This document shows, one piece after another, positions 2 to 7,733 of a stretch of 64,000 bases of DNA. The DNA is taken from assembly GCA_031421065.1 (NCBI GenBank), contig JANONW010000288.1:2993-66992 (forward strand). The letters run 5' to 3'. The notes under the pieces were generated by a model. The model saw nothing but the letters and a program-made list of their open reading frames with translations. It ran no database searches and was not told the origin of the DNA. The stretch comes from Prolixibacteraceae bacterium (GTDB taxonomy: Bacteria; Bacteroidota; Bacteroidia; Bacteroidales; Prolixibacteraceae). The position numbers and the translations under genes were made by a program. Each line of letters starts with the position of its first letter. Within the stretch, counting starts at the first letter, position 1.

Positions 2-310
2 CAATGGGAAGCCTATCAGAAAGAAGAAAATATCTTTCAGGACAAAGAAGTTCTAAATGCGCTGATTGGCATAATGGACATGCGTCAAACTGATTTTCTT
101 TCGGCCTCAACACAAATCATTATTGCTCCGGGACACTGTTTCAGGATGACCGATGGGATGATCACCAATTTTCACCAGCCGCAAAGTACGCTTCTGTTGC
201 TTATTTCAGCCTATCTGGGCAAAGAATGGCGCACCATATACGAACATGCCCTGGGAAACAATTACCGTTTCCTGAGTTACGGCGACAGCAATTTGTACCT
301 GAAAGCGTAA
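2..310 (+). CDS. queA: S-adenosylmethionine:tRNA ribosyltransferase-isomerase, 3' part (starts before the window)
   Basis: C-terminal QueA motifs ITNFHQPQSTLLLLISA and YRFLSYGDS; frame is open from position 2. Confidence 0.9.
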   Translation, partial: QWEAYQKEENIFQDKEVLNALIGIMDMRQTDFLSASTQIIIAPGHCFRMTDGMITNFHQPQSTLLLLISAYLGKEWRTIYEHALGNNYRFLSYGDSNLYLKA

Positions 311-365: not shown

Positions 366-373
366 TAAATTTG
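366..373 (+). promoter_or_regulatory. Bacteroidota -7 promoter box (TAAATTTG) upstream of the uORF/hem operon
   Basis: Exact TAnnTTTG match; the ORF-track TTG start at 371 lies inside this box. Confidence 0.55.
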
Positions 374-424
374 TTGCCTTGTCAGGAAAATATTGACAAA
401 AGATTTAAACTAAACAAGCTGCCT

Positions 425-784
425 GTGTTTCTATTTGGAATATTATCGAGTCCGCTACCCTATCTGTTAATGGCCGTATTCTACTTCTTCGGCTTCGCTA
501 CAGGTATGTTCAAGGGTAATGCCGATAACGAGCCAGGCCAACAGGTTCAAGTAAAAAAAATTCAGGTTGAACCTCAAACGAAAACCTGTGGAATAGCCAA
601 ATCCACTTTTCAATTTCACGATTACAAGTTTCAGGAAAAATTTGATAATTACGCTGTTTCATCCGTTCGACCACCAGCAGTTTGCCAAAAAGAAAAGCTG
701 ATTTATTTCGTTCACGACATAATTGCCCATCATTCATTTACTTCCGAATACAATTTCTGCCGGCCACCGCCATCTTGCAGCTAA
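425..784 (+). CDS. Small membrane-anchored protein / candidate regulatory upstream ORF ending in RPPP; start uncertain (GTG 425 or ATG 470)
   Basis: Hydrophobic N-terminus (FLFGILSSPLPYLLMAVFYFFGFA), C-terminus EYNFCRPPPSCS*, 123 bp before hemA. Confidence 0.55.
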   Translation: MFLFGILSSPLPYLLMAVFYFFGFATGMFKGNADNEPGQQVQVKKIQVEPQTKTCGIAKSTFQFHDYKFQEKFDNYAVSSVRPPAVCQKEKLIYFVHDIIAHHSFTSEYNFCRPPPSCS

Positions 785-907
785 TACCCCGATTCAAGCA
801 TTTTTCCATAAAAAGAGCTGACATTCTGGAAACATAAACTCCTGAAGTCTGTTTTATGGTTTGCTATCAATGAATTTCACATTAGCTATTTAGATAAAGA
901 TAAAAAC

Positions 908-2161
908 ATGATTGGCCTGATAGGAATTAGCTATAAAACGACACCTCTCGAAGTCCGCGAAAAATTTTCATTCTCAAAAGAGGAAATTATTCCCTTTTCT
1001 GAAATGTTGCAACGGGAAACTGAAATCTCCGATTTGGTGCTGATTTCGACCTGCAACCGAACGGAAATATACTTTTCTCAGGATGTGCACGACAATCAAA
1101 CTGCATTTGAGTTGGTGTATGAAGTGATTAAAAAGTTCAAACAAGTCACCGACCATTGCTGGCATTACTTTTACCACCGGTCAAATACCGGAGCAGTGCG
1201 TCATTTGTTTGAGGTCAGTTCGGGTCTTGATTCGCTGGTAATTGGCGAAGATCAGATTATTGGTCAGGTGAAGGAAGCTTACATCAGGTGTACAGAAGCC
1301 GCGCTGACAGATGCAGTTTTGATGCGTCTTTTCCAGAAATCGTTTGAAGTGGGCAAACGTGTCCGCACCGAAACAGGCATCAAGCTTGGTATCACTTCAA
1401 TAAGTAGTGCTGCGGTCGAAATGTGTTCGTGCCTGCTCAACGGTGCAAACGATAAAAGTGTATTGCTGATTGGAGCCGGAGAAACCGGAAATTTGGCACT
1501 GCAAAACATAGTAAAAAAAGGTGTTGGCAAAGTTACTGTTACCAACCGGACCCACGAAAAGGCTGAAAAGTTAGCCGCCAAATACAATGGAGTAACAGTT
1601 CCATTCGATCATTTTGAAGATTATCTGCATGAAAGTGATATCATCATGATCGCCACTTCAGCGCCCAAACCACTGATAATCAAAGAAATGGTAATGAAGT
1701 CCCTGAAGTTGAGATGCAATAAAGCCCAGGTTTATGTTGATTTATCGGTTCCCCGAAACATTGACAAAGAAGTGGCAGGACTGGAAAACATCAGCGTTCT
1801 TGGTGTTGACGATCTTCAGAAAATAGTTAGTCAAACCTCCGAAAAGAAAAAAGAAAGTGCGGCCAAAGCACAAATAATAATCGATGAAGTTGTGGCAGAT
1901 TATACAGAATGGCTGGCAAGCCGCTCGTTGCGCCCGGCAATTAATACTATAACCACAAACCTTCAGGCCATTAACCTCGAAGAATTATCAACCTATCGAA
2001 AGTTAAGCACTCCAGAAATGCAGGAAATTGTGGATGATTATGCCAAACACCTTACCCATCGATACACCCGTTTGCTGATTAAAAACCTGAAAGATTTAAC
2101 GGATAACGGAAAAAACATCGATTCGTTAAAAACCATCAATGATTTATTTAAATTCGTCTAA
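908..2161 (+). CDS. hemA: Glutamyl-tRNA reductase
   Basis: STCNRTEIY catalytic motif, GEDQIIGQVK, GAGETG nucleotide-binding motif, DLSVPRNI. Confidence 0.97.
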   Translation: MIGLIGISYKTTPLEVREKFSFSKEEIIPFSEMLQRETEISDLVLISTCNRTEIYFSQDVHDNQTAFELVYEVIKKFKQVTDHCWHYFYHRSNTGAVRHLFEVSSGLDSLVIGEDQIIGQVKEAYIRCTEAALTDAVLMRLFQKSFEVGKRVRTETGIKLGITSISSAAVEMCSCLLNGANDKSVLLIGAGETGNLALQNIVKKGVGKVTVTNRTHEKAEKLAAKYNGVTVPFDHFEDYLHESDIIMIATSAPKPLIIKEMVMKSLKLRCNKAQVYVDLSVPRNIDKEVAGLENISVLGVDDLQKIVSQTSEKKKESAAKAQIIIDEVVADYTEWLASRSLRPAINTITTNLQAINLEELSTYRKLSTPEMQEIVDDYAKHLTHRYTRLLIKNLKDLTDNGKNIDSLKTINDLFKFV

Positions 2162-2207
2162 AATTTTCTGACAGCAAACCAATTTGGTTTACCCTTGACC
2201 GAACTCA

Positions 2208-3146
2208 ATGAAAAAAAACATAAGAATTGGAACTCGTGGCAGCCAACTGGCACTCTATCAGGCAAAAAAGGTAAAAGCCACGCTCGAAAATTTATTTCCT
2301 GAACTTCAGGTTGAACTGAAAATTATTAAAACAAAAGGCGACAAAATTCTTGATGTTGCGCTTTCAAAAATCGGCGACAAGGGTTTATTCACTAAAGAAA
2401 TTGAAAATGCGCTGCTTGATGGGTCGGTAGATTTGGCTGTTCACAGCCTTAAAGACCTTCCTACAACCTTGCCTGAAGGTTTAAAACTGGGTGCAGTACT
2501 TGAACGTGGTGAATTTCGCGATGCGTTGGTAAGTAAAGGTGGCAAAAAGCTGTCGGAACTTGGCGCGGGCGATGTAGTTGCCACTTCCAGTTTACGTCGC
2601 CAGGCCGGATTAATGAAAATGAACAATCAGATTATCATCAAAGATATCCGCGGAAACGTCAATTCGCGACTTCAAAAAATGGAAGACGGCCATTGTGATG
2701 CAATGATCATGGCAGCTGCCGGACTTCAACGTTTAGGACTTGAAAAATACATCACCGAAATAATAGATCCTGAAATGATTGTGCCAGCAGTCAGCCAGGG
2801 TGCAATTGCCATCGAAATTCGTTTAAACGATCCTGAAGTTGAGCTTTTGATGGAAAAAATCAATCACATTGAAACATGGAATGCCATTACTGCCGAACGT
2901 GCTTTTCTGGCACATTTGCAGGGAGGCTGTCAGGTTCCGCTTGGTTGTTTTTCGAAGGTTGAAAACGGCATATTAACAATGACGGGATTTGTTGCATCAG
3001 TTGACGGAAGCCAGTTTATCAACGAAACCATTTCGGGGGAAATAAGCAAAGGCGCCGAACTCGGAGTTCAAATGGCAGAAAAAATGCTCGGAAAAGGAGC
3101 GCTCGAAATTTTGAACCAAATAAAATCAATCAAACCTACAAATTAA
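2208..3146 (+). CDS. hemC: Hydroxymethylbilane synthase (porphobilinogen deaminase)
   Basis: IGTRGSQLAL, GLFTKEIE, VHSLKDLPT, LQGGCQVP. Confidence 0.97.
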   Translation: MKKNIRIGTRGSQLALYQAKKVKATLENLFPELQVELKIIKTKGDKILDVALSKIGDKGLFTKEIENALLDGSVDLAVHSLKDLPTTLPEGLKLGAVLERGEFRDALVSKGGKKLSELGAGDVVATSSLRRQAGLMKMNNQIIIKDIRGNVNSRLQKMEDGHCDAMIMAAAGLQRLGLEKYITEIIDPEMIVPAVSQGAIAIEIRLNDPEVELLMEKINHIETWNAITAERAFLAHLQGGCQVPLGCFSKVENGILTMTGFVASVDGSQFINETISGEISKGAELGVQMAEKMLGKGALEILNQIKSIKPTN

Positions 3147-3151
3147 ACAAA

Positions 3152-3937
3152 ATGAGCAAATTACTTGAAGATAAGGTGTTCATTTCTACCCGCCCGGCTG
3201 GTCAGTCAGCCGAACTGGAAAGCCTTTTATCGGAAGAATCAGCCAACCTGATTTCAATGCCGACCATTGAAATCCGACCACTTCCTCTCGATGAACCATC
3301 ATGGTTGCAACTAAAAAATCTCGACTCGTTTAACTGGATTGTATTTACGAGCCCGAATGGCCTAAAGTTTTTCTTTGCACGCCTGTTCGACCTTCAGAAC
3401 AATTATGGACTTCCGGAACATCTGAAAATTGCGGTAGTTGGCAAAAAAACAGCCGCACACCTTGAATGTTACGGCACATCAGCAGAATTTATCAATCTGG
3501 GAAATACAGCCGAAGATTTTTCTGCCGATTTTTACCATCGTGTAAGCCCTGGCGAACGGGTCCTTTTCCCAATTGGCAACCTTGCACGGTCGGTGATCGA
3601 AGATAAAATCTCAAAAAAAGCCATCTGTACAAGGGTGCTGTTTTATGAAACAGTAATTCCGTCCACCATAAATGAAGGCACACTGCAACTTATTCTGAGT
3701 GATCAGTACGATATGATTATACTCACAAGTCCTTCCGGATGCAGCAATTTACTAAAACTGGTTTCAGAAAAAATGAACACAACAAAACTACGCTTGGTTT
3801 GCATAGGACAAACTACTTCAGCAGAGGTTATCCGAAGTGGGCTCGAACCGCTTATTACAGCAGGCATGGCAAATTCACAAGGAATTTCGTCGGCCATTAT
3901 CAATTATTTTCAGAAGAAACAACTTATAACCAATTAA
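3152..3937 (+). CDS. hemD: Uroporphyrinogen-III synthase
   Basis: STRP, WIVFTSPNG, VVGKKTA, LTSPSG, CIGQTT; position between hemC and hemB. Confidence 0.9.
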   Translation: MSKLLEDKVFISTRPAGQSAELESLLSEESANLISMPTIEIRPLPLDEPSWLQLKNLDSFNWIVFTSPNGLKFFFARLFDLQNNYGLPEHLKIAVVGKKTAAHLECYGTSAEFINLGNTAEDFSADFYHRVSPGERVLFPIGNLARSVIEDKISKKAICTRVLFYETVIPSTINEGTLQLILSDQYDMIILTSPSGCSNLLKLVSEKMNTTKLRLVCIGQTTSAEVIRSGLEPLITAGMANSQGISSAIINYFQKKQLITN

Positions 3938-3939
3938 TT

Positions 3940-4908
3940 ATGTCTTTCCCAACAACACGACTCAGGAGATTAAGACAAACCCCTGTTTTACGCAATTTAG
4001 TACGCGAAACCATTTTAACCCGTGACGATCTGGTCATGCCGCTATTCGTTTGTCCGGGAACTGGTGTAAACAATCCAATATCATCTATGCCCGGCAATTC
4101 ACAATTATCGGTCGATTTACTGGTTGAAGAATGCCGCCGCCTTTATGGATTAGGAGTTCAGGCAGTCCTTCTTTTCGGTATTCCTGAACACAAAGACGAA
4201 CATGGCTTAGTGGCCTGCGAGCATAACGGAATTGTACAGCAGGCAGTACGCGCCTTAAAAAAAGCATTGCCCGATTTATATGTGATTGCCGACATCTGCA
4301 ATTGTGAATATACTGTTCATGGTCATTGCGGAACCATTGTTGACGGTGACGTTCACAACGACCTCACCCTGGTTACATTGGCCAGACAATCGGTTTCACT
4401 TGCACAGGAAGGCGTTGACATGGTCGCACCAAGCGATATGATGGACGGACGCGTGGGTGTCATCCGCAAAGCTCTCGACGAATACGGTTTTTACAATCTG
4501 CCCATCATGGCCTATTCGGCCAAATATGCCTCCGGATTTTATGGACCTTTCCGCGAAGCAGCCGAAAGCGCGCCAAAATTCGGGAACCGTTCTTCCTACC
4601 AGATGGATCCGGCCAATGGAAACGAGGCCTTGCGCGAAGTGGCCCTTGACATTGAAGAAGGTGCAGATATTGTCATGGTGAAACCTGCGCTTAGCTATCT
4701 GGATATTATTCAGCGGGTAAAAACCAATTTTAACATCCCGATTGCCGCTTACAATGTGAGCGGAGAATATTCGATGGTGAAAGCTGCAGCGGCCAATGGC
4801 TGGATAGACGAAAAAAGGATGGTTCGCGAAATCCTTACCTCAATCAAACGGGCTGGTTCCGATATCATTTTATCCTACCACACTCAGGATATCATCAAAG
4901 AACTGTAA
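3940..4908 (+). CDS. hemB: Porphobilinogen synthase (ALA dehydratase), Zn-type; start moved to ATG 3940
   Basis: [20 protein letters not shown] Zn-binding cysteines, [15 protein letters not shown]; the longer ORF from 3739 overlaps hemD. Confidence 0.96.
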
Positions 4909-4909
4909 C

Positions 4910-6208
4910 ATGAAACAATATACCCAAAGCATCGCTGCATTTCAGGAAGCACAAAAACATATTCCGGGTGGTGTAAACTCACCGGTCAGGTCATTTAAAA
5001 GTGTTGGCAGTGATCCCCTGTTTATTGCCAGTGCCAACGGAGCCAAAGTTTTCGACATCGACGGCCACGAATACATCGATTATGTGGGTTCGTGGGGCCC
5101 GATGATTTTGGGACACGCCCATCCCGACGTAATAATGGCTATTCAGAAAACAGCATCCAAAGGAACCAGTTTTGGTGCCCCTACCCTTTTTGAAACCGAA
5201 ATGGCCGTGCAAATAAAGAAGATGGTTCCATCCATAGAAAGTGTTCGCATGGTTAACTCCGGAACAGAGGCTACCATGAGCGCACTACGTTTGGCCCGCG
5301 GTTTTACAGGCCGTGAAATGGTCATAAAATTCGAAGGTTGTTACCACGGCCATAACGACAGTTTTCTGATCAAAGCCGGATCGGGCGCACTGACCTTTGG
5401 AACGCCTAATTCTCCGGGAGTTACCTCAGGAACTGCAAAAGATACGCTTACCGCCCATTTCAATGATCTCGATTCAGTCAAAGAATTATTTAATCGCTAC
5501 ACAGAGCAAATTGCTGCCGTTATTATTGAACCGGTAACCGGCAATATGGGTGTGGTAATTCCTGAACCAGAATTCATGCAGGGAGTCAGAGATCTTTGCA
5601 CCAAATACGGAACCGTTTTGATTTTCGATGAAGTAATGACCGGATTCCGCCTTTCAAAAGGAGGTGCACAACAAATTCTTGGCATCACTCCCGACCTGAC
5701 TTGCTTCGGGAAGATTATTGGTGGTGGGTTACCTGTTGGAGCTTATGGCGGCAAACAGGAAATAATGGACAAACTGGCTCCAAAAGGCCCTGTTTATCAG
5801 GCTGGAACGCTCTCCGGAAATCCACTTGCCATGTCTGCCGGACTTACTACCCTGAAAATTCTGGACGAAACCGATGGTTTTTACGACATGCTCGAAGAAA
5901 AATCGGCACGTCTGGGCAACGGAATTAAAAAATGTTTGGAAGACTTGAATTTTCCGGGTGTTGTTAACCGCGTGGGTTCCATGTTCACTCTATTTTTTAC
6001 TGGAGAAGCAAAAGTGAATTCATTTGCCGATGCTTGTCGTTGCAATACCGCCACCTACGCCAAATTTTTCAAAATGTCATTGGAAAGCGGTGTTTATCTT
6101 GCTCCATCGCAGTTCGAAGCCGGATTTATGTCGGCGGCACACACCTCGAAAAAGATTGACAAAACAATTGAAGCGACTTATGAGGCCTTGAAGGTTTTGA
6201 AAGGGTAA
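4910..6208 (+). CDS. hemL: Glutamate-1-semialdehyde 2,1-aminomutase
   Basis: [43 protein letters not shown] (PLP lysine). Confidence 0.97.
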
Positions 6209-6347: not shown

Positions 6348-6363
6348 TGGCAGTATTTTTGAA
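6348..6363 (+). promoter_or_regulatory. Sigma-54-like -24/-12 promoter
   Basis: TGGCAGTATTTTTGAA has GG-N10-GA spacing, 68 bp upstream of the ATG at 6432. Confidence 0.5.
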
Positions 6364-6431: not shown

Positions 6432-7733
6432 ATGAAAACAAAAATTGGGATCTTAGTTTTGGCTTTAAGCACAAGCTTCTTCAGTTTGCAGGCACAACGC
6501 ACAGTAACTACAGCTCGTGCAGCAAGTTACGACATAAGCGACAACCTCGACTTGGATGCAGTAGCTTCCATTTTCGGCGATTCAGAAAATCTGGAAGACT
6601 TTGAACGCAGGCTGAACGATCCGGATAACCGGATTTCAAACCTCGACCTGAACGAAGATGGATATATCGACTACCTGCGGGTACTCGAAAATTCATCCGA
6701 CCGCAATTCGCTGGTCGTTGTTCAGGCAGTTCTGGATGAAGCTGTTTATCAGGACGTTGCAACCATTGAAATTGAAAGGGTACAGAACGGAAATCCGCGT
6801 GTACAAATTGTTGGCGACTCTTATATCTATGGTTCAAATTATATCATCGAACCAATGTATGTTCGCACACCGTTGATTTTCTCTTTTTTCTGGAGCCCAC
6901 GATACATTACCTACCATTCGCCATACTATTGGGACTATTATCCAAGTTGGTACAGTTATTACAGGCCTTATTCTCCGTTTAGATATCAAAGGCATGTACA
7001 TGTTCATGTTAACAGGTATAATACATACCATCGTTCAACTACCCGTAATATTTATTTTTCAGGAGACAATTACAATCGCATCCGGAGAAGCGATTACGCA
7101 TCGAGGTATCCTAACCGTACTTTTGAGGGCCGGAATGCAGGTGTAAAAAATCGATATGAACTGGACCAAAGAAGGCCAAACAACCAGGCGAATCGTCAGC
7201 GAGGCAATGATGTGCAGCGGTCAAATAACCGTCAGTATCAGGACAACAGCAAGACAAATTCAGGAAGGAACGAAAGACAAAGGAATGTAATTGAAAACAG
7301 ACGCCCGGGATCGAATGTACAGCCGGAGACCAATCAAACACGGACAAGAGATAACAGCAATGTTAATTCGGCCCAAAAAAGGTCAGGTTCTGCTAATGGT
7401 CCAGTGCAGATGAAGTCAGGCAGCAAAAATGAAGGCAGTTCTGTTTCGAGGAGTCAATCTGCACCAACACAGAACAGATCTGCAAATCAGGTTCAATCGG
7501 CTAAAAGATCTACTGATTCGCGAAGCCAATCAGTTTCAAAACCAACGCCAAACAGATCGCAAAATCAGGTTGGATCACCTCAAAGAAGTTCTGCTCCGAG
7601 AGAAAAATCAGGTTCTGTATCCAGTCAGAGCAGGTCAAACACACAAGTAAAACAAGCTCCGCAAAGTAACAGGAAATCTGAATCACCAAGAAGTGAGGAT
7701 AAAAAAGAAACCGATAACAGCAGAAGAAGATAA
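6432..7733 (+). CDS. Secreted hypothetical protein with a Dx[DN]xDG Ca-binding-like loop, Tyr/Trp/Pro-rich linker and long R/N/S/Q disordered tail
   Basis: Signal peptide MKTKIGILVLALSTSFFSLQA; DLNEDGYIDY; low-complexity C-terminal ~220 aa. Confidence 0.8.
   Translation: MKTKIGILVLALSTSFFSLQAQRTVTTARAASYDISDNLDLDAVASIFGDSENLEDFERRLNDPDNRISNLDLNEDGYIDYLRVLENSSDRNSLVVVQAVLDEAVYQDVATIEIERVQNGNPRVQIVGDSYIYGSNYIIEPMYVRTPLIFSFFWSPRYITYHSPYYWDYYPSWYSYYRPYSPFRYQRHVHVHVNRYNTYHRSTTRNIYFSGDNYNRIRRSDYASRYPNRTFEGRNAGVKNRYELDQRRPNNQANRQRGNDVQRSNNRQYQDNSKTNSGRNERQRNVIENRRPGSNVQPETNQTRTRDNSNVNSAQKRSGSANGPVQMKSGSKNEGSSVSRSQSAPTQNRSANQVQSAKRSTDSRSQSVSKPTPNRSQNQVGSPQRSSAPREKSGSVSSQSRSNTQVKQAPQSNRKSESPRSEDKKETDNSRRR

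Follow-up and report, generated by a model that had tools for sequence, protein, structure and literature searches.

The element described here is a small gene that stands directly in front of the early heme biosynthesis genes of a Prolixibacteraceae bacterium (NCBI GenBank assembly GCA_031421065.1). It lies in a stretch of 64,000 nt, the window, which comprises positions 2,993 to 66,992 of the forward strand of contig JANONW010000288.1; all coordinates below count from the first base of that stretch. Near its beginning the 3' end of queA is followed by a probable regulator-binding site, a probable promoter, a gene of 119 codons whose product ends in an Arg-Pro-Pro-Pro (RPPP) motif, an intergenic spacer, and then hemA and the other early heme genes (Table 1). 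The hemA assignment is based on its GlutR_N, Shikimate_DH and GlutR_dimer domains. The small gene belongs to a protein family whose members head heme operons and in which little apart from a predicted N-terminal membrane helix and the RPPP end is conserved. We propose, with a probability of roughly 0.58, that it is a regulatory leader of the arrest type and represents an undescribed family dedicated to heme operons in one order of the Bacteroidota.

Table 1. Features of the leader-hemA region, in window coordinates.
Feature	Position	Strand	Basis or remark
queA 3' end (queuosine biosynthesis, PF02547)	2-310		precedes the leader promoter
FNR/CRP-type palindrome TTGAC-AAAG-ATCAA	319-332	+	about 47 nt 5' of the -7 box
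-7 box TAAATTTG, probable promoter	366-373	+	genus-wide aligned conservation
Leader gene, 119 codons, GTG 425 to TAA 782-784	425-784	+	alignment of starts, public gene calls
Uncharged transmembrane helix (predicted), residues 2-29, presumed sensor or anchor	428-511	+	alignment, AlphaFold2
Hypervariable acidic linker of near-constant length, residues 30-110	512-754	+	alignment, predicted coil
F-C-R-P-P-P codons (RPPP at 761-772), candidate arrest motif	755-772	+	invariant columns
Three-codon tail S-C-S plus TAA stop	773-784	+	tail length in homologs
Second short helix, 5' arm GCCATC	769-774	+	RNAalifold, window clade
Long-range helix, 5' arm ATCTTGCAGCTAAT (last codons, stop, one further base)	772-785	+	genus alignment
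Leader-hemA spacer, no promoter-like or terminator-like signal	785-907	+	box and terminator scans
Long-range helix, 3' arm ATTAGCTATTTAGAT, 13-27 nt 5' of the hemA ATG	881-895	+	genus alignment
Early heme genes: hemA 908-2161, hemC 2208-3146, hemD-like 3152-3937, hemB 3940-4908, hemL 4910-6208	908-6208	+	
Second short helix, 3' arm GATTGGC (G of the hemA ATG plus codons 2-3)	910-916	+	RNAalifold, window clade

The reading frame that contains the leader is open from 371 to 784, and its product terminates in ...FCRPPPSCS, 123 nt before the hemA start at 908, just as a first-pass annotation made from the sequence alone had described. The same annotation let the gene begin at 371, which is too far upstream. 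The aligned first residue in relatives is Met or Val, encoded by ATG or GTG, and the true start in the window is therefore GTG 425, which gives a product of 119 residues; TTG 371 is ruled out as a start, since it overlaps the -7 box and the relatives' aligned start falls on 425. Of 74 close homologs with gene calls in public records, most are likewise given 119 residues, and every one of them is named "hypothetical protein"; the few organism names given with them are Prolixibacteraceae or unclassified Bacteroidetes.

The leader is preceded by a -7 box of the Bacteroidota type on the plus strand, and this is the only exact TAnnTTTG on that strand between the queA stop (310) and hemA, which bears out the first-pass annotation on this point. 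The window as a whole holds 69 such boxes where 61 are expected, and a single box alone is not significant. The weight of this one comes from conservation rather than from counting, because a TAnnTTTG is present at the aligned position in all relatives in the genus. In other genera the box lies 31-48 nt 5' of the leader start. Its position and conservation make it the probable promoter of a leader-hemA transcript. A separate hemA promoter in the spacer, which the earlier annotation had weighed as an argument against its own idea, does not appear there: the spacer holds no TAnnTTTG with one mismatch or fewer, although a non-consensus promoter is still conceivable. Synteny between queA and the leader is kept in only part of the genus.

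A profile search of 1.84 billion cluster representatives retrieves 232 proteins of the leader family, nearly all of them 110-125 residues long. The leader has no match in Pfam at E values up to 1 and none in NCBIfam, and the family is undescribed, previously unnamed and unannotated. In an alignment of 135 members, with a mean column identity of 18%, the only invariant columns are R113, P114, P115 and P116, and the only near-invariant ones are M1, F2, G5, P12, Y13 and Y20; the N-terminal consensus reads MFxFGxxSxxLPY...Y. RPPP lies within 12 residues of the C-terminus in 210 of 220 homologs and is followed by a tail of just two or three residues in 180 of 211. In the canonical R-x-P-P motif, which arrests efficiently, x is Ala or Gly; here it is Pro throughout the family. 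The residue two before the Arg is Phe in 79% of members, and the residue immediately before it is Ser, Cys or Asn. The conserved reading frame with an invariant R-x-P-P end that the first-pass annotation had envisaged in relatives is therefore real, with x as Pro. It reaches well outside the genus, although identity over the remaining sequence drops to about 20%.

The codons beneath this motif are not conserved. Among homologs the Arg is written CGG, CGC, CGT, CGA, AGA or AGG, and the Pro codons vary freely among CCA, CCT, CCG and CCC, which indicates that the constraint acts on the peptide and not on the RNA. This bears on the simplest account of the region, namely that translation of the leader is only an anti-polarity spacer, or that RNA structure is what matters, and that RPPP has no part in the mechanism. 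RNA helices and conserved blocks do exist in the spacer. However, hundreds of homologs, with spacers that share neither sequence nor length (52-255 nt), retain RPPP despite synonymous codon changes, which points to selection on the peptide and makes an RNA-only role very improbable.

The remainder of the protein divides sharply into two parts. With the 135-sequence alignment as input, AlphaFold2 predicts helices at residues 2-8 and 10-29 with a predicted local distance difference test score (pLDDT) of at least 90, and no secondary structure outside residues 2-29; the linker is modelled as coil, and the predicted template modelling score (pTM) is 0.30. Charged residues appear only from about position 31 on, and in 91 of the 135 members the first of them is Lys or Arg, which fits an anchor with its N-terminus outside and its C-terminus inside. 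The linker carries a net charge of about -2.8 and no invariant column. The ratio of nonsynonymous to synonymous substitution rates (dN/dS) in pairwise comparisons follows the same division, at 0-0.05 for the first 30 codons (at dS 0.3-0.8), 0.11-0.28 for the linker and 0-0.27 for the last 11 codons, and this regional pattern shows that the frame is translated and selected. A strongly kept helix and RPPP end, joined by a variable linker, would be the conservation pattern of a regulatory nascent chain.

The first-pass annotation had suggested that such a chain might be either membrane-pulled or responsive to heme or metal, and had pointed to Cys and His residues in the segments TCG, VCQK and IAHH. 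These segments are indeed present in the translation, but no column of the protein body holds a conserved Cys or His in the 135-sequence alignment, and none of the listed residues is kept in relatives; their role as heme or metal ligands is thus ruled out. The conserved hydrophobic N-terminus, by contrast, fits the other half of that suggestion, a sensor pulled by the membrane.

The distribution of the family is narrow and its genomic context is narrower still. A translated search of 24 genomes of the genus finds the leader in 23, always co-oriented with hemA and directly 5' of it; 111-145 nt separate the two genes, except in one case with 73 nt. Among these relatives leader identity falls to about 32% while that of HemA stays near 77%. 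Within the window's family 91 of 201 genomes have the leader, as do 21 of 36 genera; in a sample of 301 genomes from the order it is present in 43. In about 390 other Bacteroidota genomes sampled it was not found, save for one doubtful partial match inside a frame of 566 residues. Among the genomes sampled, the family is restricted to the window's order.

At 60 further loci of the family the leader is followed by hemA in 27 cases, by a TonB receptor in 30 and by hemN in three (the last assigned by TIGR00538 equivalog matches above cut-off). The receptor loci might at first be taken for a separate siderophore or iron context with no connection to heme. This is ruled out by longer stretches around 22 of them, taken both within the family, in several genera, and elsewhere in the order (L101-L122, e.g. 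L102:554-7811): in 20 the order is leader, receptor, major facilitator superfamily (MFS) permease, hemN and protoporphyrinogen oxidase, with hemF in some, and 15 of these 20 also contain hemH. Of the five that do not, one lacks the oxidase as well and four stretches end earlier; the two loci outside the 20 have a more divergent receptor. The leader therefore heads two kinds of operon, an early one (hemA-hemC-hemD-hemB-hemL) and a late one (TonB receptor-MFS-hemN-protoporphyrinogen oxidase-hemH), the latter sometimes without receptor and permease. At the more than 100 loci examined, nearly every copy opens a heme operon, and every context with identified downstream genes is a heme biosynthesis operon, whether early, late, or late without the import pair. 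The link to tetrapyrrole synthesis that the first-pass annotation drew from one locus thus holds wherever the family was examined.

The late operons have a further peculiarity. The nearest solved relative of their receptor is FyuA, the yersiniabactin/pesticin receptor (E = 1e-38), and the permease that follows it resembles RhtX/FptX. The presence of a FyuA-like receptor and an FptX-like permease within a late heme operon suggests that import is hard-wired to the ferrochelatase step. What they take up is presumably iron, or perhaps a tetrapyrrole.

Three genomes (G190, G132 and G075) carry two leaders, one in front of each operon. In a tree of 71 leaders the operon types are clustered, yet there are at least three or four changes of type across well-supported branches, and the hemN-type leaders nest within receptor-type clades. 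Such repeated switching fits a portable cis-regulatory cassette.

It also bears on the foremost alternative, that the gene encodes a stable small membrane protein which acts in trans on heme metabolism, tethering or regulating a pathway enzyme or an importer, with the C-terminal L-F-S-R-P-P-P as a short docking or degradation motif. Membrane-anchored regulators of glutamyl-tRNA reductase do exist in other lineages (HemX in Bacillus, FLU in plants), and both the very strong purifying selection on the helix, with its near-invariant G5, P12, Y13 and Y20, and a linker dN/dS of about 0.2, which is not neutral, would suit such a protein. On the other hand, the helix is the only part with a predicted fold, none of the linker residues is conserved across 135 sequences, and the motif is fixed two or three residues from the stop, as it is in proven arrest leaders. 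The module moreover heads, and has moved between, operons with different first genes (hemA, TonB receptor, hemN), which argues against a role specific to one partner. We consider a trans-acting protein unlikely, if the strongest of the alternatives to an arrest leader.

Heme operons that carry the leader are probably also controlled at the level of transcription. Relatives in the genus share the palindrome 5' of the -7 box at the corresponding alignment position. Of 74 sequences upstream of leaders, 23 hold a box of this type, with at least 9 of 10 matches to TTGAT-N4-ATCAA, and these come from hemA, receptor and hemN loci alike; among shuffled sequences the share is 2.9%. The site at 319-332 is a probable binding site for a dimeric regulator of the Crp/Fnr family. 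Its recurrence suggests that such a regulator, perhaps responsive to oxygen or redox state, also controls heme operons.

Beyond the peptide itself, the 3' end of the leader appears in RNA helices that reach the hemA start. The 3' arm of the long-range helix is the most conserved part of the spacer, and in the sister clade it reads TTAGCAATCCTGATAAAGAT. When alignment columns 22-35 of the genus are set against columns 143-157, 79% of cells are paired; shifting the partner by one to three columns lowers this to 17-49%. The pair 29/149 is compensatory (U-A in 14 sequences, A-U in 7), and two further pairs show changes on both sides; a helix with covariation is thus present in some clades. Clade-wise consensus folds contain a second, shorter helix that joins the Pro/Ser codons to the first codons of hemA, and in the sister clade CCUCC.AUCA pairs with UGAU.GGGG from the hemA start. 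An RNAalifold run over the alignment of the entire genus contained no structure; among these consensus folds, only the clade-wise ones gave helices. A counterpart comes from one other genus, where ..AAGCA..UUAUGAUA.., a stretch that includes the hemA AUG, is paired with the leader UAUCAUAG and the bases 3' of its stop, with energies between -18 and -22 kcal/mol; the pairing sequences are unrelated to those of the window's genus, and the design is alike. Set against two controls, pairing by other segments of the leader and pairing with other segments of hemA, the leader 3' end outperforms both (0.05 level) at 11 of 23 loci of the genus and at 7 of 24 from other genera. The helix is strong in the sister clade and in the one other genus. 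A ribosome held on RPPP would cover the 5' arms of both helices.

Two further blocks of the spacer, GCACACTTTTCATTTTCAG and CTGCAACTTTTATTGTGCATAATTGTTTTT, are strongly conserved at loci L010-L023 (aligned with about 800-880 of the window). CTGCAACTTTTATTGTGCATAATTGTTTTT can pair with TTAGCAATCCTGAT, and may by that pairing offer an alternative partner to the leader 3' end and hence a switch.

Over its last 200 nt the leader is rich in C and poor in G (C/G ratio 1.3-2.3). This composition makes a Rho-dependent output possible, of the kind known for CruR, the copper-responsive upstream regulator of Bordetella pertussis (PMC9426467), and such an output may be the general one.

The same composition would suit a plainer account of the motif. 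PPP is the classical EF-P-dependent pause, and an ordinary polyproline pause, with no sensing by the nascent chain, could tie the operon to EF-P activity or translation capacity, or time the coupling of ribosome and RNA polymerase. PPP is present at residues 114-116, EF-P is encoded in the genome, and the C-rich leader end could be a Rho loading site that a paused ribosome masks. But the invariant Arg and the frequent Phe two residues before it would then be needless, the conserved N-terminal helix is left unexplained, and deletion of efp has no effect on regulation by CruR (PMC9426467). We regard a plain pause as improbable, more so than a protein acting in trans. The proteome contains RPPP three times in 1.08 million residues against about 3.8 expected, a count uninformative on depletion.

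Returning to the arrest leader, we infer from these observations a stall, its signal, the direction in which it controls expression and the means of coupling, and we propose that they act together as follows. Transcription would start at the -7 box. The first 29 residues of the nascent chain would form the uncharged transmembrane helix, and the next 83 or so variable residues would serve as a spacer. Most likely the ribosome would stall at F-C-R-P-P-P, three codons before the stop, by RAPP-type chemistry in which Arg and the Pro-Pro pair disturb peptidyl transfer. The stalled ribosome would cover about 758-787, including the last codons and the stop, and in operons of the hemA type these bases would otherwise pair with the region of the hemA translation start. 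A ribosome held there would leave the hemA start accessible, shield the C-rich leader end from Rho, or do both, with the result that the heme genes are expressed; release of the stall would shut their expression down. Release, in turn, could come from the pulling force of helix insertion into the membrane, or from a cue on the helix related to heme, porphyrin or energy.

We hypothesize that the helix is the sensor, since the variable body offers no site for specific binding of a ligand. Two readings of how it would sense fit what is seen. In one, insertion of the helix would pull on the chain and end the stall, as for MifM, and output would then depend on insertion capacity or on energisation of the membrane, which itself needs heme proteins. 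In the other, heme or porphyrin in the membrane would act on the nascent helix; its two invariant or nearly invariant tyrosines stand seven residues apart. Taken as a whole, a ribosome-stalling leader that tunes heme production is most likely what the gene encodes, and it would be the first such control described for the pathway. Our more specific proposal is tentative and falls somewhat short of even odds: that this is the first nascent-chain regulator of tetrapyrrole synthesis, with an RPPP stall tuned by heme or porphyrin load or by membrane energy, and with paralogs that co-ordinate the early and late operons.

Several observations weigh against an arrest leader of this kind. EF-P normally relieves PPP pauses, and an EF-P domain (PF01132) is found above cut-off in the window's genome. 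Most RAPP-like sequences from ordinary proteins of Escherichia coli and Bacillus subtilis, in a set that included RPPP, arrest inefficiently (Fujiwara et al., PMC10987492). The linker does not evolve neutrally, and conservation of the helix exceeds that in monitors of the SecM or MifM type; a mature protein with a function of its own is therefore possible. The RNA side is uneven as well. In the clade of the window (L001-L008) the long-range helix is reduced to a core of 7 bp with short flanks, and its duplex energy is no better than that against random hemA segments. A partition-function model that masks the ribosome footprint gives, across the genus, a hemA-start accessibility of 0.46 free and 0.42 masked, and none of 26 receptor-type operons passes both pairing controls. 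A universal helix by which the stall opens the downstream start is not supported: the evidence for it is confined to some hemA clades, no such helix was detected before receptor operons, and masking gave no consistent gain. Terminator-like hairpins are also rare, at 6 of 73 leader loci where 2.2 are expected, and there is none on the plus strand of the window's spacer; an intrinsic-terminator attenuator in the spacer is unlikely on these grounds.

The heme genes of the window continue beyond hemL. After a gap of 224 nt come a frame of 433 residues (6432-7733), hemE, hemN and protoporphyrinogen oxidase. The 433-residue product, encoded between hemL and hemE, matches nothing in Pfam or NCBIfam; a weak homolog with 33% identity adjoins hemH at another locus (L110), and the protein is, to judge from its neighbours, heme-cluster-associated. 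A TAnnTTTG box lies in the gap at 6354 and another at 6454, just inside the frame.

How heme synthesis is controlled has been worked out for no more than a few model bacteria, with heme-triggered proteolysis of HemA in enterics and Irr, HrtR or HssRS elsewhere. To our knowledge, such control is essentially unknown in the Bacteroidota. A leader that heads both the early and the late heme operons would provide a concrete and testable regulatory element for the whole pathway. If our proposal is true, control of the RAPP type, so far a matter of protein export and copper, would come to include tetrapyrrole and iron metabolism, a variant of the motif in RPPP, and the ribosomes of a phylum that initiates translation without Shine-Dalgarno pairing.

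Arrest peptides with which the leader can be compared fall into several groups. ApdA, ApdP and the RQH family are described 5' of sec and yidC genes (Sakiyama et al. PMC7897499; Fujiwara et al. PMC10987492), and the way in which RAPP blocks peptidyl transfer has been shown by Morici et al. (PMC10951233). More generally, RxPP with x as Gly, Ala, Ser or Pro stalls ribosomes, a motif that came from earlier random screens; replacing Ala by Pro in ApdA and ApdP leaves arrest partly intact, sequences containing RAPP are EF-P-resistant, and small RAPP or RGPP proteins with N-terminal localisation signals are enriched 5' of TonB receptors and metal-homeostasis genes (all from a 2025 study in EMBO J, PMC12992588). 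The leader shares with these peptides a C-terminal R-x-P-P that is kept while the rest diverges, an N-terminal localisation signal, here a predicted transmembrane helix, and a place directly 5' of, and co-oriented with, the putative regulated gene at all loci examined. It differs from them in having Pro as x, the variant reported to keep arrest in part, and from ApdA, ApdP and RQH in that hemA or hemN operons, not protein-localisation machinery, lie downstream. Published surveys sought RAPP or RGPP, or sec and yidC neighbours, and would therefore have missed an RPPP family; a full-text search of the literature found no paper on an RPPP-ending leader or a hemA leader.

MifM of B. subtilis and SecM offer a likeness in layout. 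They too have an N-terminal membrane segment and an arrest site at the C-terminal end, about 85 residues on, and in several hemA clades the footprint of a stalled ribosome would cover the 5' arm of a helix that masks a start, as at mifM-yidC2 and secM-secA. There is no sequence relationship between them and the leader, and a match to SecM_small (0.93) in a protein atlas is a weak lead only. The sequence of the leader's helix is strongly conserved, whereas the signals of MifM and SecM are not; the masking helix is weak in the clade of the window and undetected before receptor operons; and the gene 3' of the leader is not an insertase, a translocase or any other localisation component, as it is for MifM, SecM, VemP and ApdA/P.

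The closest parallel is CruR (DUF2946), a protein of 145 residues with RAPP three residues from its end, which is the first gene of a TonB-transporter operon and in which copper relieves the arrest through a CxxC, with Rho-dependent termination as the output (PMC9426467). Both it and the 119-residue leader are small proteins encoded by the first gene of an operon, with a hydrophobic N-terminal segment and a poorly structured body. In CruR the motif is needed in cis for the downstream genes, including a TonB-dependent transporter, and paralogous leaders of our family also precede a TonB receptor. The genome of the window itself encodes two proteins that look like canonical RAPP leaders of the CruR type or TonB class, both rich in His and Cys and hydrophobic at the N-terminus. 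One, of 104 residues, ends in RAPPVS* (G000:C416:27180-27494; L100:281-595) and is followed directly 3' by a TonB-dependent receptor of the CarboxypepD_reg type; the other, of 144 residues, ends in RAPPIV* on the minus strand at a contig end (G000:C389). The RAPP-ending frame before a TonB receptor indicates that this class of leader is in use in the organism. The leader described here is nonetheless no CruR homolog: it lacks a DUF2946 match, and its body has neither the CxxC, which in CruR stands about 45 residues from the motif, nor other conserved ligand residues. It has RPPP in place of RAPP, a transmembrane helix as its only second conserved element, and heme-synthesis operons in the phylum Bacteroidota as its targets. 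As far as its sequence and context can tell, the family would thus be set apart from known RAPP-like leaders by the RPPP motif, by a membrane helix as the sole sensor element, and by its dedication to heme operons.

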